From contig JBEIQE010000001.1 in the NCBI GenBank assembly GCA_040376705.1, positions 246,809-310,808 on the forward strand: DNA of 64,000 bases, read 5' to 3'. The position numbers were made by a program, and so were the translations under genes. The DNA comes from Micavibrio sp. (lineage in GTDB: Bacteria > Pseudomonadota > Alphaproteobacteria > UBA2400). Below, piece by piece: positions 1 through 9,539 of this stretch. Under the pieces are notes generated by a model. That model was not told the DNA's origin and searched no databases. It saw only the letters and a program-made list of their open reading frames with translations. Positions within the stretch are counted from its first letter, which is position 1. Every line of letters starts with the position of its first letter.

Positions 1-534
1 TGAAAAGCCCATCGGCTCAACATGGCTCTGGATGGCGTGGCCGATATCGCCAAGGCGTGCCCCCGGCTTGACCAGTGCAATCGACTTCATCAGCGCATCG
101 TAAGTCGCATCAATCAGCTTCTTGGCGCGTACGCCAGCTTCACCCGCTACATACATACGCGAGGTATCGCCATGCCAGCCATCAACAATGGTGGTGACAT
201 CGATGTTCAGCGCATCGCCCTCTTCAAGAATTTTGCTGTCATCCGGAATGCCATGGCAAACCACATGGTTCACCGAGGTGCAGATGGACTTGGGGTATCC
301 CTTGTAGCCGAGCGGGGCCGGAATCGCGCCATGGTCGCGGATAAAATCGTGGCACAGCTGGTCGAGCTTGCCGGTGCTTACACCGGGCACCACATAAGGC
401 GTAATCATATCAAGTGTTTCGGCCGCCAGCTTGCCGGCTTTGCGCATGCCCTCAAAGTCGGCAGGACCGTGCAACGGAATATTGCCGGGGGCGTTTTCGA
501 AGTCGTCTTCGTCGTCTACTTGGGGCCTAGTCAT
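1..534 (-). CDS. map: Methionine aminopeptidase, type I (runs off the window edge; alternative start at 540)
   Basis: Manual translation of the minus strand: MTRPQVDDEDDFENAPGNIPLHGPADFEGMRKAGKLAAETLD...PAPLGYKGYPKSICTSVNHVVCHGIP...LNIDVT...GWHGDTSR, typical MetAP motifs. Not in the ORF track because the stop lies outside the window. Confidence 0.95.
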   Translation of the reverse strand, partial: MTRPQVDDEDDFENAPGNIPLHGPADFEGMRKAGKLAAETLDMITPYVVPGVSTGKLDQLCHDFIRDHGAIPAPLGYKGYPKSICTSVNHVVCHGIPDDSKILEEGDALNIDVTTIVDGWHGDTSRMYVAGEAGVRAKKLIDATYDALMKSIALVKPGARLGDIGHAIQSHVEPMGFS

Positions 535-594
535 AGGCATTAAGTAGCGTTTATACTGGTGAAAGTCTACTGTATTGAAGAAACGGCCCCTAAA

Positions 595-1347
595 ATGACA
601 GCGAATCCAACAGCCTGTATTGTCGTTATTGGCAACGAAATCCTCTCCGGCCGCACGCAGGACGCCAATATCAACTACATCGCCAAGAAACTGGGTGCGT
701 CAGGCATTCCGGTGCAGGAAGTGCGCATCATCCCAGATGTGCCGGATGTGATTGTAAAAACAATCAACGAAGTACGCGCCAAGTTCACCTATATCTTCAC
801 CACCGGTGGTATCGGTCCCACGCATGACGATATTACAGCCGAGTGTATCGCTCAGGCTTTTGGCGTACCGCTTGAGCATAACGCAGAGGCACTGGCGATT
901 TTGACCGAATATTATAAGGCTATAGGTAAAGAATTGAACGAAGCGCGTATGCGGATGTCGCATGCTCCCAAGGGGGCGAGCGTGCTGACCAATCCGGTGG
1001 GTAAGTTCCCCGGCTTCAAAATCGAGAACGTACATATCCTGCCCGGTGTACCGCAAGTGATGCAGAACATCTTCGATAATCTGTTGCCATCGCTTTCAGG
1101 CGGCCCGCCGATTGTGATGCATATTGTAACCTGCGATGTACGCGAAGGTGACTTGGCAGAAGACCTGCGCGAGATTGCGCTGCGCTACCCGACGATTGAT
1201 ATCGGTAGCTATCCCGGTGTGCGTAACGATCAGTTTGTCACACAGCTCATCTGTAAGGGTAGTGATGCCGAGATGGTAGCTACTGCAGGCAGAGAAGTTG
1301 CTGAGATGGCTGCACGTTTAGGTAATCTGCTGGACGTTGCGGCCTAG
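595..1347 (+). CDS. Competence/damage-inducible protein A-like (molybdopterin-binding/MocF domain)
   Basis: IGNEILSGRTQDAN, TTGGIGPTHDDITA and LPGVP motifs; ATG at 595 preferred. Confidence 0.9.
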   Translation: MTANPTACIVVIGNEILSGRTQDANINYIAKKLGASGIPVQEVRIIPDVPDVIVKTINEVRAKFTYIFTTGGIGPTHDDITAECIAQAFGVPLEHNAEALAILTEYYKAIGKELNEARMRMSHAPKGASVLTNPVGKFPGFKIENVHILPGVPQVMQNIFDNLLPSLSGGPPIVMHIVTCDVREGDLAEDLREIALRYPTIDIGSYPGVRNDQFVTQLICKGSDAEMVATAGREVAEMAARLGNLLDVAA

Positions 1348-1348
1348 G

Positions 1349-1834
1349 CTACATTCCCGTTTTGGGTGAGCTTAAAGTAGCAGTGTGCTGGCGGTATCGG
1401 TCGGCTGGGCCGCAGTTTTCGTCAAACAGCCTGGCGGTATCGGCAAGCCGTGTTGCTTCAATCTGCACACGGCCGATTTCTGCAGGCGTATTGGCGTTAT
1501 TCACATCTTTGCGCGCAGCATCCAGCTTTTCATCAATAATCGGCAGGGCGCGCGCGCACATGGCATCGCGGTTAATCTCGAAATGTTCAACCAGCTTGGC
1601 CTTATCAACATCAAGACCTTCAGGTATCTGCGGCGACTGCGCCGACTTGTTCATGCCGGCAGCCAGACCAACCAGTACTTCTTCCGGGCGCTGCTGCAGT
1701 GGGGCTGCGCCAAACGTCTGCATGGTCCGTCCGATGAGTGATTTGTTGAACGCATCCGTAGGCCCCGCGTTGGGGTTTTGCGCGATATATTCGGCCAGCG
1801 CTTCGGCGTCCTGTTTAATCCGATCTGTGCTCAT
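1349..1834 (-). CDS. Hypothetical protein (orphan-like, 161 aa)
   Basis: ATG-started ORF with protein-like composition, abutting the cinA-like stop; no recognisable motif. Confidence 0.65.
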   Translation of the reverse strand: MSTDRIKQDAEALAEYIAQNPNAGPTDAFNKSLIGRTMQTFGAAPLQQRPEEVLVGLAAGMNKSAQSPQIPEGLDVDKAKLVEHFEINRDAMCARALPIIDEKLDAARKDVNNANTPAEIGRVQIEATRLADTARLFDENCGPADRYRQHTATLSSPKTGM

Positions 1835-1879
1835 TCTTACAGGCTAACAGTATAGGCTTAAGGTATGCTGAAGCGGCAG

Positions 1880-1895
1880 GTTAATGAATATTTAC
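1880..1895 (-). promoter_or_regulatory. CtrA-box-like site upstream of the 1349..1834 ORF
   Basis: Minus strand reads GTAA-N7-TTAAC, one mismatch to TTAA-N7-TTAAC. Confidence 0.35.
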
Positions 1896-1909
1896 CATGC
1901 TGGTTTGCT

Positions 1910-1983
1910 TGGGCTATCGGCGGGACTTGAACCCGATTCACAGGGCCACAACCTGTTGTCTTGACCAGTTAGACGACCGATAG
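1910..1983 (-). tRNA. Non-canonical tRNA-His (anticodon GUG), 7-bp acceptor / 4-bp T-stem
   Basis: Minus strand folds as CTATCGG TC GTCT AACTGGTCA AGAC A ACAGG TTGTGGC CCTGT GAAT CGGG TTCAAGT CCCG CCGATAG C CCA. All four stems are fully Watson-Crick paired; D-loop GG, U33, TTC T-loop, C73 and an encoded CCA are present. Confidence 0.9.
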
Positions 1984-1994
1984 GATAAGCAGAA

Positions 1995-2366
1995 TTAAAG
2001 GGTCGCAGTGGCCATATGTGCTCTGGGTGTGCGGATAACAGGCTTCTGCACAGGGCGCAGTCTATCTGCATCGCCGCGCATAATTGCCACGCAGGTGGCA
2101 AGATAAAGCGCCTGAGCAGGATCGGCGGGCTGTAGCCATGTTTCGTAATTCTCGGCAGATGAGCGGATGCTGCTGCGGATGCCAGCGGGAAGCTGCAGGA
2201 GTGGCGTTCGGTCAATCGGGGCGCGGCTGAAATAACTACGCAGGTCGGTATTCACCCGAAAGGCAGCTTCGGCAATCTCGAGCCCGCTGGCAGGCCTGTT
2301 CAATAGAGCATTGATGCTGGCTAAATAGCTGAAATACTGAGTAGGAGCAGGTGTTTGTAGGGTCAT
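1995..2366 (-). CDS. Hypothetical protein (123 aa, MTLQTPAP...), between the HHHH leader and tRNA-His
   Basis: ATG at 2366 preceded by GCGAGTTTATC. The TTG extension to 2510 in the ORF track overlaps the leader/attenuator. The stop is 11 nt upstream of the tRNA. Only one His residue. Confidence 0.7.
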   Translation of the reverse strand: MTLQTPAPTQYFSYLASINALLNRPASGLEIAEAAFRVNTDLRSYFSRAPIDRTPLLQLPAGIRSSIRSSAENYETWLQPADPAQALYLATCVAIMRGDADRLRPVQKPVIRTPRAHMATATL

Positions 2367-2503
2367 GATAAACTCGCGAGCTGAGAATGGAAATTCAGGT
2401 CGGAGTATCGGGGGGAGAAGTTCAGATCCGCCGACACGCCAAGGCGCGCCGGCTAAAAGCCAACGCGCTAAGCGTGATGATGGTGGCGTGTGAATAACTT
2501 CAT
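2367..2503 (-). promoter_or_regulatory. His-responsive attenuator-like leader RNA
   Basis: Mutually exclusive hairpins 2468-2444 (GCGCGTTGGCT-TTT-AGCCGGCGCGC) and 2453-2430 (GCCGGCGCGCC-TT-GGCGTGTCGGC). Leader segment ACACGCCA (2491-2484) is complementary to TGGCGTGT (2441-2434). A C/U-rich tract follows at about 2420-2376. Confidence 0.75.
2468..2503 (-). CDS. His-run leader peptide MKLFTRHHHHA
   Basis: ATG AAG TTA TTC ACA CGC CAC CAT CAT CAC GCT TAG; the ATG falls at the predicted +1 of the upstream promoter (leaderless). Confidence 0.8.
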   Translation of the reverse strand: MKLFTRHHHHA

Positions 2504-2509
2504 GTTTCA

Positions 2510-2539
2510 AGCCTAAGCTAAATACAATCTGCAGGTCAA
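2510..2539 (-). promoter_or_regulatory. sigma70-like promoter for the HHHH leader unit
   Basis: TTGACC (2539-2534)-N18-TAGGCT (2515-2510); predicted +1 at about 2503. Confidence 0.6.
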
Positions 2540-2559
2540 AAGGTTTTTAGTTAATGTGG

Positions 2560-3465
2560 TTACAGGCTTTGCATCATTTCGCGCGCTGCACTCTTCATCG
2601 GTTCTTCAAACGCACTGTGATTGCCGGCAATCATGCGAATTTCAAGCGATGGCAGGGCCTCCTTCAGGCGGTAGGCTTCCTCTGGCGGGCAGTCCATATC
2701 AAAGCGGCCATGCACCAATGTACAGGGGATGCTGGCGATCTGTTCCAGCCCAGTAAACAGGTCGTTGGGTTGGCGCAGGAAGAATTGTTTGGTTGAGTAG
2801 TAGAACAGCAGTTTCCACTTGTTCACATCCTTATGGGTAATATCCGCCTTGTTCACGGGTTTTGGCACCATGCGGCAGGATGTGCTGCTGAGTACTGACA
2901 GCCTATAGGCGGCTTCAAGCCGCAGGGCCTCATCAGCACCATTAAGTGTCTCAAACATGAACTGCGTGAGGCTGCGGCTATCGCCAGCAGGCTTGAGGTG
3001 CTCGAGTGCGGCCTGCTGCTCGGGGAAGAACAGGCGAATGCCCTCAAAGCTCCATTCCTGATCTGCTACCGAGGCGCCAAAGAAACTGATAATCGACATG
3101 CGTGTGCAGTGCTGAAGATAGTTTTTAACGTAATAAACCGCCAGCGTTGCGCCCCATGAGTGGCCGGTTACTGCCCATTTATCGATACCCAGCATCATGC
3201 GTAGGCGCTCGATATCGCCCAGCGCTTTTTGTGTGGTGTTATCGCGCAATTCGCCGAAGGGCAGGGAGTTACCGGTGCCGCGCTGGTCAAAAGTAATCAG
3301 GCGTATCCGCTCGAGCGGAAAAATCTCAAGGTAGTTGGTATTGAAGCCTGAACCTGGCCCCCCATGCAGAAACAGAACAGGCGTACCATCCGGGTTGCCA
3401 TAGGCATACCACGCTACTTTGTGGCCATCCTGTTCGGGCAGTTGGCCTTGTGCATAAGGTTGCAT
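2560..3465 (-). CDS. Proline iminopeptidase-like alpha/beta hydrolase (peptidase S33)
   Basis: GNPDGTPVLFLHGGPGSG, FDQRGTGNS, GHSWG nucleophile elbow, HGRFDMDC and GNHS; ATG at 3465 lies 2 nt after the upstream stop. Confidence 0.88.
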   Translation of the reverse strand: MQPYAQGQLPEQDGHKVAWYAYGNPDGTPVLFLHGGPGSGFNTNYLEIFPLERIRLITFDQRGTGNSLPFGELRDNTTQKALGDIERLRMMLGIDKWAVTGHSWGATLAVYYVKNYLQHCTRMSIISFFGASVADQEWSFEGIRLFFPEQQAALEHLKPAGDSRSLTQFMFETLNGADEALRLEAAYRLSVLSSTSCRMVPKPVNKADITHKDVNKWKLLFYYSTKQFFLRQPNDLFTGLEQIASIPCTLVHGRFDMDCPPEEAYRLKEALPSLEIRMIAGNHSAFEEPMKSAAREMMQSL

Positions 3466-3467
3466 GT

Positions 3468-4682
3468 TTAGACACACTCCAGAGTGTTCTTGCGCTTGTG
3501 CATTTGTACACCCGGGGTGAGGTCGATGTCACCCCTCAGTACTAAGCCCATTTTGGCCATGGCATAGGGGTAGCCGGCATCAGTGAAGCTGTTGTCGTAG
3601 CCGGTACCGGGGCGTTCGCTGTCTTTAGCCAGCCTGTGCCAGTTGGCATCGTAGACATGGATTTCGGCTTTGGGCAGAGCTTCTTTCACCATATTCAGTG
3701 TTTCGGGCTCACAGAGCGGGTCGTTGCTGTGCGCCATTACGATAACGGGAATATCAGTTTTGCCGATAGCCTGTAGCTGCGCCCGTACACCCATTTTACC
3801 GAGGTAGTAATTATCAGCCCCATACTGCGCCATGATGCGTGCTCTCGCGATGAGCTGGCGATCCATCGGGTCATCCAGATTCACGCTGTCAGCCGTGCGT
3901 GTATAGACCTCGCCATTACGGGCCTGCTCCCATCGCGATGCCGCGATGAAGGCAGCAACAACACGCTTCTGGTCATTACTACCTAACTCATCTGCCAGTT
4001 GCTGCAGTCCTTCCTGCGCGTTCATCTTGCCGGTGGCGGAAACATAGCGGTCATACTCAGCTGGGTAGCGCTGCGCGAGCAGGCCTTCTGCTCCATAATT
4101 GTGGCCAATATCTGCACGGCGGGCCAGGAACGGCAGGCCAAGGACAAGCCCTGCCACCTTATTGGGATAGGCAGCCGCATAAGCGGTGGCCATGGTCATG
4201 CCCCATGAGCTCCCCCTGATAACCACACGCTCATCGTGGCCCATGCCTGCTGCTATACGCAGAGCTTCCATATCCTCAACCAGCTTTTCGGTGCGGTTAT
4301 TATCGAGGCAACCTGTGGGAGTTGAACTACCGGCACCACGCCAGTTGGCGGTTGCTACCCTGAATAGCTCCGGGCTGCTGTTGGTTTGCCACTGGTTGGT
4401 CATGGCTGTGCCGGGGCCACCTACAAGATCAATCGCCAGACGTGTCGGCTGACGGTTTTTGCGGCCTTCAAAGGTGCCGCGTACTTTATAGGGTATCTCG
4501 AAATTATCGTGCTTGAGCACGCCATCGGCCAGCTTCAGGTTGGTCCAGTTGTTGTAGTAGGCGTAGCGCTCGCGATCATACTCTACAAACGGGCTGATAT
4601 CCGGCCTGCGGCTGGCTAGTGCCTCAAAAGCATTGATGAGGACAGATTGAGTCCCACTGGTGGTGGCGGCTTGGTTAGACAT
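3468..4682 (-). CDS. Divergent proline iminopeptidase-like alpha/beta hydrolase with N-terminal extension
   Basis: VGGPG, WRGAGSSTP...NRTEKLVEDMEALR, GSSWG, GLVL, NDPLC and WHR match the S33 fold motifs. Confidence 0.8.
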   Translation of the reverse strand: MSNQAATTSGTQSVLINAFEALASRRPDISPFVEYDRERYAYYNNWTNLKLADGVLKHDNFEIPYKVRGTFEGRKNRQPTRLAIDLVGGPGTAMTNQWQTNSSPELFRVATANWRGAGSSTPTGCLDNNRTEKLVEDMEALRIAAGMGHDERVVIRGSSWGMTMATAYAAAYPNKVAGLVLGLPFLARRADIGHNYGAEGLLAQRYPAEYDRYVSATGKMNAQEGLQQLADELGSNDQKRVVAAFIAASRWEQARNGEVYTRTADSVNLDDPMDRQLIARARIMAQYGADNYYLGKMGVRAQLQAIGKTDIPVIVMAHSNDPLCEPETLNMVKEALPKAEIHVYDANWHRLAKDSERPGTGYDNSFTDAGYPYAMAKMGLVLRGDIDLTPGVQMHKRKNTLECV

Positions 4683-4750
4683 AATATACTCGCAGATAAG
4701 AGTTAGCTTGGCTTTTGGGAGGTTTTGGAGCGGTTATGCAGTTTTAAAGA

Positions 4751-4834
4751 TTAAAACTGTGCATGCTTCCGGTGCGCGTGGGCATGATGGCCGACGCGCG
4801 AAGTAAAGTGGAAGAAGATGCCGCTTAAAATCAT
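4751..4834 (-). CDS. His/Phe-rich leader peptide MILSGIFFHFTSRVGHHAHAHRKHAQF
   Basis: 27-codon ORF with 6 His and 4 Phe. Hairpin GCGCGTCGGC-CATCAT-GCCCACGCGC spans the His codons, hairpin CAGTTTTAA-TCT-TTAAAACTG overlaps the stop, and a C-rich/G-poor tract precedes the hydrolase start. Confidence 0.65.
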   Translation of the reverse strand: MILSGIFFHFTSRVGHHAHAHRKHAQF

Positions 4835-4843
4835 TATGCATTG

Positions 4844-4873
4844 TGCATAGCAGCACAGTTGGCGCGCCGTCAA
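4844..4873 (-). promoter_or_regulatory. sigma70-like promoter for the His leader/hydrolase unit
   Basis: TTGACG (4873-4868)-N18-TATGCA (4849-4844); predicted +1 a few nt before ATG 4834. Confidence 0.5.
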
Positions 4874-4905
4874 AACGTTTTTGATAAAATGTCTGCTATT
4901 AAGAT

Positions 4906-5361
4906 TTACGGCCTGTAGAGCTGATAGCCCGTGCTGGTACTCTTGGTTGTAAAGCCTAGCTGTTTATAAAGCTTGTTGGCTTCTTTGTTATTTGGCGTTG
5001 CTGCTGTATCAACCCGTGCGCAGCCCTTTACAAAAGCATCTTTCATGATGTGCTGAATGAGTTTGGTGGCAATACCCTGCGCCCGGAACTTGTCACTCAC
5101 GAATAGATGGTAGATGTGCCTGACTTTAAAAGGTCCGCCAAAGCTCACCCATTCACCAGTCAGGGCAAAGCCAACGGCTTTACCATCAAGCAGCGCAAGC
5201 CATGCATCTGCCATACGCTTGCTGCCAAGGCAGTATTCTGCAAGATGGGCCTCGGTCACGCGGTTTTTATCGCCGCTCCACTTTGCGTACTGCTTTAATA
5301 AAAGCACGAGCTGATGCAAGTCAGCCTTACGAATACGGCGAATACGCAAGGTGCTGCTCAT
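4906..5361 (-). CDS. GNAT family N-acetyltransferase
   Basis: LFVSDKFRAQGIATKLI acetyl-CoA motif A; N..ANKLYKQLGF motif B. Confidence 0.9.
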   Translation of the reverse strand: MSSTLRIRRIRKADLHQLVLLLKQYAKWSGDKNRVTEAHLAEYCLGSKRMADAWLALLDGKAVGFALTGEWVSFGGPFKVRHIYHLFVSDKFRAQGIATKLIQHIMKDAFVKGCARVDTAATPNNKEANKLYKQLGFTTKSTSTGYQLYRP

Positions 5362-5810
5362 ACCTTCTGCTCCCAGCCTTTTTCGGTTTGCTGCCAGTAG
5401 GTGAGCAGCGTGCCGCCTTTATCTTTAAAAACCTTCCACTGGGCGCGGGCCTGATCGAGTGCATCGTTATCGTTGCCATCGAACACATTACATACCAGCT
5501 CATACTTTGAGGTATCGGTACATTCGGCACCTTCAACCAGCATAAGCACCTGTGCGCCATTCGGGTTTTCATCTTTGGCTGTCAGCCATATCGGCTGCAT
5601 CTCGGGATCACCATCCTTGGCACTGCCATGCGGGATGAATGAGTTTTCATCGCTCTTCCATAGCGATTCATTCAGCGCTTCAACCCGCGCATCTGAGCCA
5701 ACCTTCACTACCGCACGCCAGCCCTTGGCCAGCGTGCGCGTGAGTAGCAGCGGCAACGCGCCTTCAAGACGCGTGCGCTGCAGGTGGTAGAAGCGGATCT
5801 CGGTTGGCAT
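5358..5810 (-). CDS. holC: DNA polymerase III subunit chi
   Basis: EIRFYHLQR, LW...SFIPHG, QPIWLT, ARAQWK and YWQQ; downstream of pepA. Confidence 0.95.
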   Translation of the reverse strand: MPTEIRFYHLQRTRLEGALPLLLTRTLAKGWRAVVKVGSDARVEALNESLWKSDENSFIPHGSAKDGDPEMQPIWLTAKDENPNGAQVLMLVEGAECTDTSKYELVCNVFDGNDNDALDQARAQWKVFKDKGGTLLTYWQQTEKGWEQKV

Positions 5811-7282
5811 TACTCGAAGTGATCAGCCACAAGGCGGTCGAGCAGGCGCACGCCGTAAGCCGAAGCGCCCTTCGGGCACATGGCTGTGTCCTTATACGCC
5901 CATGCCATACCGGCGATATCGAGATGAGCCCACGGCGTATTGTTCTCAACAAAGCGCTCGAGGAAAACAGCGCCAATAACAGTGCCGGCTTCGCGCGCAT
6001 TACCAATATTCTTCATATCGGCAATCGGGCTGTCGATATCGCGGTGATAGCTCTCGCCCAGCGGCAGGCGCCATAGCTTTTCACCAGTCTTGTCGCCAGC
6101 ATCAATCAGCTGCTTGGTGAGCTTGTCGTTGTTCGAGAGAACAGCCGCCTGCTCTGTACCCAGAGCCACGATAACCGCACCGGTAAGGGTGGCGAGATCA
6201 ACCATGGCCCTGGGCTTATAGGTGCGCTGCGCATAGGTAAGCACATCGCAGAGTACCAAACGGCCTTCAGCATCGGTGTTGAGGATTTCAATTGTCTGGC
6301 CGCTCATCGAGGTTACAACATCGCCGGGGCGGGTGGCTGCGCCATCTGGCATATTCTCAACCAGACCAACAATACCAACTACGTTTGCCTTGGCCTTGCG
6401 CTTGGCCAGCGCGATCATTGCGCCTACTACAGCGCCTGAGCCTGCCATGTCCCACTTCATTTCATCCATATTGGCGGCAGGCTTGATCGAGATACCGCCG
6501 GTATCGAACGTAACGCCCTTGCCGAGGAAGGCGAGCGGGGCATCGCCTTTCTTGCCACCATTCCATTCCATCGCCACAACGCGCGGCTCAATCGCGCTAC
6601 CCAGCGCTACGCTGATGAGTGAGCCCATGCCGAGCTTCTTGAGCGCAGCAAGGTCGAGCACAGTGACCTTAAGGCCCAGCTTGGTGAGTTCCTTCAGCTG
6701 GTTGGCATAGCTCACGGGGTGCAGCACGTTTGGCGGCTCGCTCACGAGGTTGCGGGTGAACTCTACGCCCTCGCTAACAGCCTCAAGCGGGCCATAAGCC
6801 TTCTTGACAGCGGCGAGGTCTTTAGCGTGAACGGTTACCTTGCTCAGCTTTGGCTTATCCTCGGCCTTCAGTTTGGTGCGGTACTTGTCGAAACGGTATG
6901 AACGCAGCACAGCACCATGTGCCACCAGCGCGGCAGCGTTCTTGTTCTTCGAGTCAACCGCAACAGCTACGCTGGCAGATTCGCCGTGGGCGAAGGCTAC
7001 ATACAGTAAGCCGCCCGCAGCGGTGAGGGTAAGGTCGTCCGCCTTCTCAGCCTTGCCCGAGCTGATAATGGTTACACGGTCGTAACCACCAATAGCGTAA
7101 AGCGAGAAACTCGCGCCAGCCTTATCCTTAAAGCCTTGTGCTGCCATACCGCGCGAAAGCGCGCCGCCAAGGGTTTTATCGAGCGCCACACCGGTCGGCC
7201 CCAGCTTATCGCCTGCAATAACCAGCGCCACGGTGCCCTTGCTGGGCAGGGGGGCAGAAGAAAAGTCGATTTTAACGGTCAT
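5810..7282 (-). CDS. pepA: Leucyl aminopeptidase (M17)
   Basis: GKGVTFDTGGISIK, MKWDMAG, NTDAEGRL, DLATLTGA and WAHLDIAG. Confidence 0.97.
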   Translation of the reverse strand: MTVKIDFSSAPLPSKGTVALVIAGDKLGPTGVALDKTLGGALSRGMAAQGFKDKAGASFSLYAIGGYDRVTIISSGKAEKADDLTLTAAGGLLYVAFAHGESASVAVAVDSKNKNAAALVAHGAVLRSYRFDKYRTKLKAEDKPKLSKVTVHAKDLAAVKKAYGPLEAVSEGVEFTRNLVSEPPNVLHPVSYANQLKELTKLGLKVTVLDLAALKKLGMGSLISVALGSAIEPRVVAMEWNGGKKGDAPLAFLGKGVTFDTGGISIKPAANMDEMKWDMAGSGAVVGAMIALAKRKAKANVVGIVGLVENMPDGAATRPGDVVTSMSGQTIEILNTDAEGRLVLCDVLTYAQRTYKPRAMVDLATLTGAVIVALGTEQAAVLSNNDKLTKQLIDAGDKTGEKLWRLPLGESYHRDIDSPIADMKNIGNAREAGTVIGAVFLERFVENNTPWAHLDIAGMAWAYKDTAMCPKGASAYGVRLLDRLVADHFE

Positions 7283-7353
7283 AACAAGCGCTCCGGCTGT
7301 GGGTGGACTTAATAGAGCCAACAAAGTAAAAGCTTCCCGAGAGTTGTCAATTG

Positions 7354-8448
7354 ATGAACCGTCTAGATGCCTATCTTATGCGTGCTTTGGTGCTCGCCCT
7401 GGTGTTCGTAACCTTCGCGGTTACGGCGGCTGTCTGGCTGACTCAATCACTGCGCTACGTCGATGTTGTGGTAGAAAACGGTGCCCCGCTGCACCTGTTC
7501 GTATGGCTGGCGCTGCTCACATTGCCCACTTTCCTCTCGATTATTCTGCCAGTTGCGCTGTTTGTCGCGGTGCTGTTCACCTACCATAAATTCATTCAGG
7601 ACTCGGAGATGGTCGCTATGCGCGCCTGCGGTATGGGGCCTCACGCTTTAGCTAAGCCTGCGCTGATGCTTGCCTTGGTCTGTACTGTACTTGGCTTCTT
7701 CATGAGCCTGTGGCTACAGCCCCTGGCCAGCCGTGAGCTGCTGAAGATGCAGTATTTCGTGCAATCGCAATTCTCTGCTGCGCTGCTTAAGGAAGGCACG
7801 TTTAACGACCTTGGCAACCGTATGACTGTCTATGTCGCGCGCCGTGAGCAGAACGCCGAGCTAACGGGCCTGCTCATTCACGATGGCCGCAATCCGGCCA
7901 AACCGGTCACCATTCGTGCCGTGCGTGGTCAGCTCGCCCAAGGGCCCAGCGGCCCGCAGGTGATTGTGTATGACGGTATCCAGCAGGAATATAACCGTGC
8001 CACCGGACGCTTATCAGAGCTGACGTTTGATAGCTATGCCGTCAGCCTTGATACGCTGGTGCCCACGTTGGCTGGCCGCACACCGCTGCCACGCGAGCTT
8101 GGCATATTTGACCTTATCCAGCAGTCGCGTACCGAAGCCGATGCAAACCGCCAGCGTCGCCTGACCTCGGAGCTGCATCAGCGCTTTACAGGCCCGTTGA
8201 TGTCGCTCGGTTTTGCCATGATCGCCACTTGCTGCCTGCTGTTTGGTGAGTTTAACCGCCGTGGCAATGCGCGCCGCGTGATTTCGGCAGTAGCTTTGGC
8301 CGCTTTGCTGCAGGCTGTTGTGCTGGGCATGGGGCAGATGGCAACGCGTAACAGCTGGGCTATTACGCCGCTTTATTTTGCAGCCTTACTGCCAATTATA
8401 TTAGGCGTTGAGCTGCTGTGGCGTTCCGAGCGCAGGAGGTGGGTATGA
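7354..8448 (+). CDS. lptF: LPS export ABC transporter permease LptF
   Basis: YjgP/YjgQ permease pattern (DSEMVAMRACGMG, ELHQRF); divergent from pepA; first of a tandem pair. Confidence 0.9.
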   Translation: MNRLDAYLMRALVLALVFVTFAVTAAVWLTQSLRYVDVVVENGAPLHLFVWLALLTLPTFLSIILPVALFVAVLFTYHKFIQDSEMVAMRACGMGPHALAKPALMLALVCTVLGFFMSLWLQPLASRELLKMQYFVQSQFSAALLKEGTFNDLGNRMTVYVARREQNAELTGLLIHDGRNPAKPVTIRAVRGQLAQGPSGPQVIVYDGIQQEYNRATGRLSELTFDSYAVSLDTLVPTLAGRTPLPRELGIFDLIQQSRTEADANRQRRLTSELHQRFTGPLMSLGFAMIATCCLLFGEFNRRGNARRVISAVALAALLQAVVLGMGQMATRNSWAITPLYFAALLPIILGVELLWRSERRRWV

Positions 8449-9539
8449 AAATTCCCATGACGCTATCGCTCTATCTGTTCCGGCAGTTTTTGATTTTCTT
8501 TGTCGTTATCATGGCTGGTTTGCTGTCGATTGTCTTTATCGGTGAAGCACTTGAGCTGCTGCGCCGTTCGTCTGCGCACCCCGATATCAGCTTTGGCCTG
8601 ATCATGAGCATGGCCGCGTTCAAGCTGCCGGGCACAGGGCAGGTAATGCTGCCTTCGGTTATGCTGTTTGCGTCGCTTTATTTCTTCTGGCGGTTTACCA
8701 AATCGCGTGAGCTTGAGGTGGCGCGTGCCTCCGGCATGTCGGTGTGGAATTTTTTGGCGCCAGTCGCCTTCGCGGCGATGCTGCTGGGCGTGATCGAGGT
8801 CACTATCATCAACCCCATGAGCGCGGCGATGGTCGGTCGTTTTGAACGCATGGAAGACAAGCACTTTCGTGGCCGCCTGACCACGCTCGATATTTCGTCT
8901 GCCGGTATCTGGATCAGTCAGGCCGATGCGCAGGGGCAGGCGTTCATTCATGCCGAGGCGCTTAAGCCCGGCACGTTTGACCTGCTTAATGTGATTGTGT
9001 TTGAAAATCCGTCCGACCTGCCGCGCAGCATCCGTATTGATGCCGAATCGGCCCGCCTTGTGCCCGGGGCATGGGAGCTGACCAACGCTATCGTCCGCAA
9101 ACCCGGCGATGCCGCGCAGGAGAAGCCCCTGTTCAGGCTGCCAACCGAGCTTACCCAGTCGCGTATTGAAGATAGTTTCGCTTCCCCCAACTCGCTCTCC
9201 TTCTGGCAGCTCTCCGAGTTTATTCGCACGCTGCAGGCAGCTGGCCTCTCGAGTGTGCGGCATGAGCTGTATTTCCAGTCACTGCTGGCCAAGCCATTAC
9301 TCTTGGCAGCTATGGTGTTGTTGGCGGCTGTGTTTGGCTTGCGCTCATCGCGCCAGGGCGGGATTTTTGCCACCGTCGCCAGCGGGTTGATTTTGGGATT
9401 GCTGCTGTATGTTCTTAACGATGTTATTCATACTTTTGCACAATCTGGCGGCATGCCGGTGATTCTCGCAGCCTGGGGGCCTGCCTTGGTCGGGCTAACT
9501 GCCGGCGCTGCGGCGCTGTTCCACTTTGAAGATGGCTAA
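8445..9539 (+). CDS. lptG: LPS export ABC transporter permease LptG
   Basis: SRELEVARASGMSVW, LSFWQL, LAAWGP and C-terminal EDG. Confidence 0.9.
   Translation: MKIPMTLSLYLFRQFLIFFVVIMAGLLSIVFIGEALELLRRSSAHPDISFGLIMSMAAFKLPGTGQVMLPSVMLFASLYFFWRFTKSRELEVARASGMSVWNFLAPVAFAAMLLGVIEVTIINPMSAAMVGRFERMEDKHFRGRLTTLDISSAGIWISQADAQGQAFIHAEALKPGTFDLLNVIVFENPSDLPRSIRIDAESARLVPGAWELTNAIVRKPGDAAQEKPLFRLPTELTQSRIEDSFASPNSLSFWQLSEFIRTLQAAGLSSVRHELYFQSLLAKPLLLAAMVLLAAVFGLRSSRQGGIFATVASGLILGLLLYVLNDVIHTFAQSGGMPVILAAWGPALVGLTAGAAALFHFEDG

Follow-up and report, generated by a model that had tools for sequence, protein, structure and literature searches.

Organization of the Locus

The stretch of DNA considered here, called the window throughout, comprises 64,000 nucleotides of a draft genome of Micavibrio sp. 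(assembly GCA_040376705.1; positions 246809-310808 of contig JBEIQE010000001.1, or C73). On its minus strand, between positions 1910 and 4873, it carries in this order a short open reading frame (ORF) rich in histidine codons (leader 1), two genes for α/β hydrolases of 404 and 301 amino acids (aa), a second His-rich leader ORF (leader 2), a gene for a protein of 123 aa and a tRNA gene with the anticodon GUG, here termed tRNA(GUG). The two leader regions, which are copies of one another, probably represent a leader system that senses His-tRNA and has been retargeted to non-biosynthetic genes, in a host for which hisG, hisD and hisB were not found.

Transcription of the first module could start from a putative promoter read from the sequence at 4873-4845, in which TTGACG (4873-4868) and CTATGC (4850-4845) are separated by a 17-nt spacer and which would leave only a few nucleotides before the ATG of leader 1. 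This ORF (4834-4751; ATG at 4834, TAA at 4753-4751) encodes MILSGIFFHFTSRVGHHAHAHRKHAQF and has six His among its 27 codons, the last of them four codons ahead of the stop. In minimum free energy (MFE) folds a GC hairpin, H1 (4799-4774; GCGCGU...ACGCGC), encloses four of the His codons, and an AU-rich hairpin, H2 (4759-4739; CAGUUUUAA-UCU-UUAAAACUG), straddles the stop codon. The leader is followed by a C-rich, G-poor and rut-like spacer (4750-4683) that ends with the start context GCGAGTATATTATG. Downstream of it lies the gene for the 404-aa hydrolase (4682-3468), a divergent S33 prolyl-aminopeptidase paralogue of a rare family, and then that for the 301-aa hydrolase (3465-2560), a nearer relative of prolyl aminopeptidase, whose start is 2 nt away from the 404-aa stop codon and which would be translationally coupled to the preceding gene.

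The second module may have a promoter of its own at 2539-2511, where TTGACC (2539-2534) is followed after 17 nt by TTAGGC, a poor −10 element; read-through from module 1 is equally possible. Leader 2 (2503-2468), which is covered by a spurious 171-aa ORF extension, consists of 11 codons for MKLFTRHHHHA, with CAC CAU CAU CAC as the His codons, and leads into a switch region (2468-2372) made up of the segments A (2468-2458), B (2454-2444), C (2439-2428), D (2414-2400) and E (2379-2372). The 123-aa ORF (2366-1995), whose product belongs to no known family, comes next, and 11 nt past its stop begins the 74-nt tRNA(GUG) (1983-1910), which is recognized by ARAGORN and scores 47 bits against the Rfam tRNA model. 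The anatomy described in the first-pass annotation of this DNA, in which two His-rich leaders precede the hydrolases and the 123-aa gene and the series ends in a tRNA with a His anticodon, was thus recovered element by element.

Histidine Metabolism of the Host

The host genome is a 2.65-Mb draft assembly of 94 contigs with 55.9% G+C and a completeness of 97.1%. It contains a permuted tmRNA, as is typical of Alphaproteobacteria, and belongs to an order with four genomes in total, each a separate genus. Neither hisG (TIGR00070) nor hisD (TIGR00069) nor hisB (IGPD, PF00475) was found in this genome, and each of the control searches for these genes was positive in 14 of 14 named genomes. A single member of PF00977 (HisA/HisF) is present at C50:26821-27504, with the rest of the pathway not alongside, and two such members are needed for histidine synthesis. 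Since hisG, hisD and hisB were not found, the host is probably a histidine auxotroph, which fits the guess made in the first-pass annotation. Both hisS (394 bits) and a canonical tRNA-His encoded elsewhere in the genome, which that annotation had named as genes to look for, are present, as is leuB, and hutH is absent. Among the three other members of the family hisD was detected in one (G002) and not in G001 and G003.

Two Paralogous Leader Modules

The two leader regions align as duplicates of one another. Both modules carry the −35 context AAAAC[GC]TTTTGAC[GC] and a GC hairpin of the form GCGCGT.GGC ... GCC..CGCGC, and H1 of leader 1 aligns with the A:B hairpin of leader 2 as well as with a hairpin at the leader stop of the metagenomic locus L011 described below. 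The start context GCGAGTWTATYATG, a pattern defined after both sites had been seen, occurs twice in the 2.65-Mb genome, at the 404-aa and the 123-aa gene only, compared with 0.05 occurrences expected from base composition. The near-identical initiation context of the two regulated genes that had been remarked on earlier is thereby borne out. By contrast, the two leaders and the GUG anticodon had also been counted as three independent His signals, which is an overstatement, since the leader regions are paralogous copies.

That the leaders are products of chance is unlikely, as had been argued. On both strands of the genome only 18 small ORFs (6-45 aa, at least four His within nine residues, outside long ORFs) were detected, two of which are these leaders, and leader 2 alone among them has four consecutive His. 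Furthermore, both leaders are correctly stranded, lie directly upstream of genes and are found within 2.4 kb of each other. No convincing additional case emerged from the genome-wide scan for further His leaders, and the corresponding scan for Trp-rich leaders returned 27 small ORFs, none of which was judged convincing. A third His-rich upstream ORF may exist at C12:31887-31925 (minus strand), where a small ORF, MPSHIHHSHMAR, precedes a membrane-like ORF of ~170 aa by ~100 nt, without a C-rich spacer.

The RNA downstream of leader 2 can adopt alternative folds. The hairpins A:B, B:C, C:D and D:E are mutually exclusive, and segment E holds the Shine-Dalgarno (SD)-like GCGAGU of the 123-aa gene. 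The MFE of the leader 2 region is −52.1 kcal/mol (z −3.45), and none of 200 shuffled sequences was as stable. When single sequences were folded computationally with a 28-nt ribosome footprint masked, a ribosome with its A site at the first or middle His codon allowed A:B (2468-2458/2454-2444) and C:D (2437-2428/2414-2405) to form, which leaves the GCGAGU largely unpaired, and with the ribosome at the last His codon or the stop codon B:C (2453-2444/2439-2430) and D:E (2406-2400/2379-2372) formed, in which the GCGAGU is paired. The alternative hairpins that had been noticed after leader 2 are therefore real by both MFE and ribosome-masked folding. No indels affect leader 2 in contigs from three further strains (~98%, ~98%, and ~89% identity). 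A run of six C at window position ~2410, next to segment D, is one base shorter in strains X2, X3, and X5.

The leader 1 region folds with an MFE of −54.1 kcal/mol (z −3.05; 1 of 200 shuffles as stable), and its conservation could be followed by comparing three metagenomic loci of the 404-aa family, L010, L011, and L012. The 94% strain L010 has the same His part in its leader and the same hairpin H2, and the three changed bases within the leader ORF all fall in N-terminal codons. L011 is far more distant: its hydrolase has no more than 54% identity, and another gene, a 495-aa Nnr-like ORF, lies upstream. Even so, a 24-codon ORF, MAGFAADIVLFKGHKHHAVKHWRA, with four His is found in the 167-nt intergenic region. 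As in leader 1, the N-terminal half of this ORF is hydrophobic, the pattern GH..HA..KH is present and the last His codon precedes the stop by exactly four codons; the TTTGACC of the −35 context is present in L011 as well. By the L010 and L011 comparisons leader 1 is conserved in both homologous loci with upstream DNA (2/2), so that for leader 1 the conservation check named in the first-pass annotation is passed.

The spacers that separate the leaders from their genes are of unusual composition. The leader 1 spacer contains 20 C and 7 G in 68 nt, the ratio is 22 C to 8 G for leader 2 and 25 to 9 for L011, and in all three the excess of C over G reaches at least 14 per 60 nt, a value found in the top 0.66% of genome windows. 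The C-rich, G-poor spacers suggest control by Rho or at the level of translation, and rho is present in the genome (701 bits, above cut-off). The leader hairpins themselves are followed by CUUGGCG and CAUAACC. The combined scan for sigma-70 promoters and terminators was not enriched, with three promoter-like sites (3.4 expected) and seven terminator-like sites (4.8 expected); a promoter-like match on the minus strand at 2393-2365 was disregarded, as it overlaps the start codon of the 123-aa gene. Rfam matches to mir-7147, SOX2OT and a fragment of SAM_alpha at E ≤ 10 were rejected, being far below the gathering scores.

The Hydrolase Pair

Both hydrolases match Abhydrolase_1 and the S33 family Hydrolase_4 in Pfam, and for both the best NCBIfam model is prolyl aminopeptidase (TIGR01249), whose cut-off of 259.75 bits is missed by the 404-aa protein (110.6 bits) and by the 301-aa protein (205 bits). 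The structures 1qtr and 1azw match the 301-aa protein with E-values of 2.3e-50 and 1.5e-48, and the profile of the 404-aa family with E-values of 1.4e-34 and 3.4e-35. The catalytic triad is kept in both proteins: the GxSWG motif (GSSWG, GHSWG) aligns with S113, the Asp with D268, and the His with H296 or within one residue of it. In the enzyme of Serratia marcescens F139, Y149, and F236 build the proline pocket and E204 and E232 give electrostatic contacts (PMC9147577, excerpts). HMMER alignments place F, S, S, L, and S of the 301-aa protein and F, N, E, M, and G of the 404-aa protein at F139, Y149, E204, E232, and F236 (S. marcescens numbering). The 404-aa protein carries, in addition, an N-terminal extension of ~80 aa, and W251-E252 is invariant within its family. 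Judged from these alignments, neither hydrolase is a standard prolyl aminopeptidase, and because residues for proline recognition are missing in both, even the term “aminopeptidase” is uncertain. Of the peptide scavenging proposed in the first-pass annotation, the S33 fold and the triad are present, but proline-anchoring residues are lost, so that scavenging itself is conjectural. No signal peptide was apparent when either N-terminus was read, and no metal sites were recognized in the hydrolases. A third pip homologue, an ordinary one, is encoded on contig C83 of the host.

The 404-aa family is rare. Eight homologues at E ≤ 1e-20 were retrieved among 5.8 billion cluster representatives, no member at E ≤ 1e-40 among 400 other genomes of the class, and no relative in a search of the contigs of species-representative genomes; within the order, the 404-aa protein met only ordinary pip homologues with 28–29% identity (G001, G003). 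Viral contigs (IMG/VR) held no match for the 404-aa or the 123-aa family. At the DNA level, comparison of the region with 41 genomes gave short coding matches of 44-49 nt in only two other genomes. In L012 a 404-type gene and a gene for a 304-aa hydrolase are adjacent and are followed by tRNA-Leu(UAG) and tig. Furthermore, the longest contigs of the two hydrolase families are of equal size in four more lineages (22503, 4433, 15804, and 12966 nt), which would link the two families there too. By the adjacency in L012 and the shared contig sizes, the hydrolase pair is a conserved two-gene unit.

The 123-aa Protein and tRNA(GUG)

The 123-aa protein had been called an orphan, a label that is not borne out, as five homologues exist in metagenomes (82, 63, 43, 39, and 41% identity), with 22 invariant columns. 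With only four representative clusters among 1.84 billion proteins and a presence in one of the four genomes of the order, the host itself, it is by these homologues a real but very rare family. The protein has no match in Pfam, NCBIfam, PHROG or PADLOC, and a profile of the six family members retrieved nothing from PDB or Pfam; a match to SecM (E 0.16, one of six members) was rejected. The contig size of 22503 nt shared by the hydrolase families is also that of a 63% homologue of the 123-aa protein, which suggests linkage.

The tRNA(GUG) is unusual in several respects. Position −1 is C, so that the G-1 of tRNA-His is lacking; the acceptor stem starts with C1:G72 and is followed by C73 and an encoded CCA, the D loop has nine nucleotides, the variable region four, and the T stem just four base pairs. 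At the same time, all four stems are fully Watson-Crick paired, and U8, A14, G18-G19 and the T loop TTCAAGT are intact. The host has 47 tRNA genes, including a canonical tRNA-His (C73:410652-410727) with encoded G-1, G1:C72, C73 and an 8-nt D loop. A canonical tRNA-His scores 62.1 bits with the Rfam tRNA model, as compared with 47 bits for tRNA(GUG). Among these 47 tRNAs C1:G72 is found only in the three tRNA-Pro genes and in tRNA(GUG), and C73 only in the two GUG tRNAs. Within the genome tRNA(GUG) has no close paralogue, the best global identity to another tRNA being 0.76; in its D arm it is similar to tRNA-Gln. Phage records contain no match to it, and species-representative genomes no tRNA with the same D-arm plus GUG pattern. 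In contigs of other strains, including the one of ~89% identity, it is retained without indels. In this ~89% strain (run X5), 19 nt of the window (1887-1905), just beyond the 3′ end of the tRNA, are replaced by 577 other letters.

From these features, tRNA(GUG) is a maintained tRNA-shaped RNA. Loss of G-1 lowers the efficiency of histidyl-tRNA synthetase (HisRS) more than 100-fold in Escherichia coli and yeast (PMC3064791, excerpts), and no Thg1-like gene that could add G-1 was found in the genome. By its identity elements tRNA(GUG) is probably a poor HisRS substrate. The description as a special tRNA-His is thus too simple, the main HisRS identity element being absent and the first base pair of the Pro type. 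An identity set of C1:G72, C73 and GUG without G-1 was not met in the literature searched.

Genomic Neighborhoods and Mobility

The locus is flanked upstream by genes for a GNAT acetyltransferase, holC and pepA, and downstream by a gene for a 161-aa protein, a cinA-like gene and map. Immediately upstream of module 1, the GNAT acetyltransferase gene (4906-5361, minus strand) shares 4 nt with holC; the 94% strain L010 retains it, and in G003 it is absent beside holC. Directly downstream of tRNA(GUG), the 161-aa ORF (1349-1834, minus strand) encodes a protein with no match in Pfam, NCBIfam, PHROG or PADLOC. In neither of the two family members examined over 10 kb (G003, G001) is the island found beside holC, but since synteny ends at pepA-holC these neighborhoods do not date it.

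In L011 the leader-hydrolase operon is located 1.7 kb downstream of a canonical tRNA-His (G-1:C73). This tRNA and, 45 nt beyond it, a repeat of ~27 nt from its T arm and 3′ acceptor strand occupy L011:2869-3016; the repeat looks like an att-type scar. L012, from the same metagenome, nearly overlaps L011. At the corresponding tRNA-His/tRNA-Leu/tig locus of the host a 363-aa ORF takes the place of the operon, which indicates that the operon has moved. Both locations of the operon are near a GUG tRNA, and this proximity could reflect either function or island traffic at tRNA-His genes. No integrase was found within the surrounding 8 kb. PADLOC gave no match for five of five proteins and PHROGs none for two, so that the suggestion of a defense against HisRS inhibitors or toxins that cleave tRNA-His finds no support.

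Model and Alternative Interpretations

We favor a reading in which two duplicated leader-peptide modules couple gene expression to the level of charged tRNA-His in a histidine auxotroph, and put its probability at roughly 0.55. In each module a TTGAC-type promoter close to a short His-rich ORF would be combined with a GC hairpin, a spacer rich in C and poor in G, and the start context GCGAGTWTATYATG. The conserved pair of divergent S33 hydrolases would be under the control of module 1, and the 123-aa protein and, probably on the same transcript, tRNA(GUG) under that of module 2. A shortage of His-tRNA-His would make ribosomes pause at the His codons, and the RNA downstream would refold. In module 2, a pause on the first His codons would allow A:B and C:D to form and free the GCGAGU, resulting in induction on His shortage, and a ribosome that reaches the last His codon or the stop would favor B:C and D:E, so that the GCGAGU is hidden. 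This would amount to translational attenuation of the ermC or cat kind. Module 1 is without a terminator, and Rho-dependent termination in the C-rich spacer, set by the position of the leader ribosome, is likely. The missing his pathway provides a direct rationale for sensing His-tRNA. The hydrolases would most likely free histidine or a His-containing product from imported peptides or amides, a role suggested by their control region and by the auxotrophy of the host.

A number of observations weigh against this reading or limit it. The His codons of leader 1 are interspersed rather than tandem, and ribosome-masked folding of this leader and of the L011 leader reveals no clear switch, so that module 1 may respond in either direction. 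AUUUUCC comes after the hairpin that straddles the L011 leader stop, and this hairpin might serve as a weak terminator that is melted by a ribosome at the stop codon, which could mean the opposite logic. The consensus sigma-70 scan flagged no promoter at either leader; of the two promoters claimed in the first-pass annotation, −35-like elements are visible, but the scan is silent and the −10 element of leader 2 is poor. On the minus strand neither the scan nor reading of the sequence revealed a hairpin with U-tract as terminator at either leader, and no match to the Rfam His_leader model was obtained at E ≤ 10 (window 1-9000), nor in L011 and L012 at E ≤ 1. The designation “HisL-type attenuator” therefore holds for the logic and fails for membership. 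Leader 2 and the tRNA were compared in near strains alone, and for indels rather than substitutions, and in L012 the hydrolase pair has neither the 123-aa gene nor the odd tRNA downstream. None of the sequencing runs listed as RNA contained the region. Both hydrolases are without some of the residues needed for recognition of an N-terminal proline. As for the auxotrophy, the calls of missing his genes rest on a draft of 94 contigs, and trpB is below cut-off, so that histidine is not the sole probable auxotrophy; no Trp-type leader was recognized. By these searches the host is probably a tryptophan auxotroph too and likely has several auxotrophies.

It is possible, though in our view unlikely, that the leaders are real regulatory upstream ORFs and that the 123-aa gene and tRNA(GUG) are unrelated passengers, the tRNA being a translation-inactive relic or cargo of mobile elements at tRNA-His genes. 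Such traffic would explain why the L011 operon lies 1.7 kb from a canonical tRNA-His with an att-type repeat, why the matching host locus is without the operon, why 577 extra nucleotides are inserted 4 nt past the 3′ end of the odd tRNA in the ~89% strain, and why the L012 pair is not followed by such a tRNA or 123-aa gene; the absence of the island beside holC in two of two family members and the 4-bp T stem and low score of the tRNA (47 bits against 62.1) point the same way. However, the intact stems, tertiary-contact bases and encoded CCA are not what decay predicts, the tRNA is kept without indels even in the ~89% strain, it follows the 123-aa gene at a distance of 11 nt and is placed under a His leader, and neither an integrase in the surrounding 8 kb nor a phage or IMG/VR match was found. 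A contrary and improbable proposal assigns tRNA(GUG) a purpose as a hybrid made when His-tRNA is scarce, either as a mischarged rescuer at His codons or as an uncharged amplifier of the signal through RelA or leader feedback. In its fullest form, the leaders of a His auxotroph would switch on the hydrolase pair together with a hybrid tRNA made with a 123-aa partner, and the tRNA would rescue ribosomes with another amino acid or act as an uncharged decoy, which we consider no less improbable. The combination of a first pair shared only with the three tRNA-Pro genes and a C73 shared only with the other GUG tRNA would suit a hybrid, as would the location under a His leader and beside paralogues of prolyl aminopeptidase, and the lack of G-1 together with that of a Thg1-like gene would keep HisRS, whose efficiency falls more than 100-fold without G-1 (PMC3064791, excerpts), from charging it well. 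C1:G72 is also a signature common to tRNA-Pro and the mistranslating tRNAProX; yet prolyl-tRNA synthetase (ProRS) needs A73, G35, and G36 as well (PMC10404621, excerpts), and tRNA(GUG) has C73 and U35. In addition, no dedicated synthetase paralogue lies in the island, and no homologous tRNA was detected in species-representative genomes by the D-arm plus GUG pattern. An acceptor/T helix of 12 bp is usual and is expected by EF-Tu and the ribosome; that of tRNA(GUG), with 7+4 bp, falls one pair short.

The signal read by the leaders could also be a different one: the His-rich ORFs might respond to a general slowdown of translation or, via the nascent peptide, to free histidine or a metal, or might be functionless chance ORFs, an interpretation to which we give little credence. 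Histidine binds Ni, Zn, and Cu through its side chain, small molecules are known to be sensed by nascent peptides (TnaC, a copper-responsive nascent protein), the GH..HA..KH pattern of the interspersed leader 1 His residues is conserved at the amino-acid level, and neither a terminator nor an Rfam match marks the leaders as attenuators. By contrast, neither gene set has a link to metals, the hydrolases having a Ser-Asp-His triad and no recognized metal sites; leader 2, with 11 codons, is too short for the exit tunnel, and its sole notable feature is the four tandem His. Chance is unlikely, leader 1 is conserved in L011, and the missing his pathway favors the sensing of His-tRNA, as in the reading that we prefer.

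Comparison With Known Systems

The HisL leader of the enterobacterial his operon (RF00514) likewise has clustered His codons directly upstream of the regulated genes, exclusive hairpins, as predicted here for leader 2, and a pausing signal, which is presumed in the present case. By contrast, the modules described here have no Rfam match, no intrinsic terminator, targets outside the his pathway and fewer His codons, and their output is likely to be translational or Rho-dependent. Recruitment of His leaders outside the his operon has arisen repeatedly: in bacilli, His leader peptides precede paralogues of hisS and hisZ (Naville and Gautheret, 2010, PMC2965389, excerpts). Those targets are His-specific genes of the synthetase family under terminator control, whereas hydrolases, a protein of no known family and a tRNA are the targets here. 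In the literature searched, in which the supplementary attenuator lists of PMC2965389 were not covered, no peptidase-like hydrolases, protein of no known family or tRNA were met as targets of a His leader.

Leader systems with Rho-dependent or translational output are known from tnaC-tnaA and mgtL-mgtA. With these and with ermC, which is mentioned as a leader system in PMC2965389 (excerpts), the modules share a leader ORF followed by a C-rich unstructured stretch, or an SD-sequestering hairpin that is opened by a paused ribosome, in a genome that contains rho. None of these systems, however, reads His codons, and a role of Rho at the present locus is suggested by base composition alone. The best structural relatives of the hydrolases are the S33 prolyl aminopeptidases of S. 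marcescens and Xanthomonas (1qtr, 1azw), with which they share the GxSWG motif, Asp and His, and from which they differ in scores below the TIGR01249 cut-off, in changed substrate-anchoring residues and, for the 404-aa protein, in the N-terminal extension.

With tRNA-His of the G-1 type tRNA(GUG) has the anticodon and C73 in common, but it lacks G-1 and has C1:G72 instead of G1:C72. The tRNA-His without G-1 of Caulobacter and other Alphaproteobacteria is characterized by A73, G1:U72 and a 9-nt D loop with U20a (PMC3064791, excerpts); here tRNA(GUG) shares only the 9-nt D loop, with C73 in place of A73 and G72 in place of U72. Its 4-bp T stem differs from both types. In the mistranslating tRNAProX of Streptomyces and Kitasatospora the discriminator is A73, the anticodons are of the A34 type and belong to Ala, Thr or Asn, and a dedicated ProRS exists in part (PMC10404621, excerpts). 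Compared by features rather than by sequence, tRNAProX and tRNA(GUG) are alike as extra tRNAs that pair the Pro-type C1:G72 with the anticodon of another amino acid, and differ in that tRNA(GUG) has C73, the anticodon GUG and no synthetase paralogue nearby.

Implications

Leader-peptide sensing of tRNA charging is textbook knowledge for biosynthetic operons. At this locus it appears in an organism without the pathway and is aimed at hydrolases, a protein of no known family and a tRNA. Leader control of this kind, lacking an intrinsic terminator, escapes screens that are based on covariance models or on terminators. If the favored reading is correct, the locus would provide a functional lead for a rare S33 hydrolase pair and for the 123-aa family, as well as a natural case of a tRNA gene under amino-acid-specific control; should the hybrid tRNA, improbable as it is, act in the way outlined above, it would constitute a regulated tRNA-based response to the shortage of a single amino acid. 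Auxotrophs are common among uncultured groundwater and aquatic bacteria, and the leader modules would show how such organisms monitor one required amino acid and link it to salvage.

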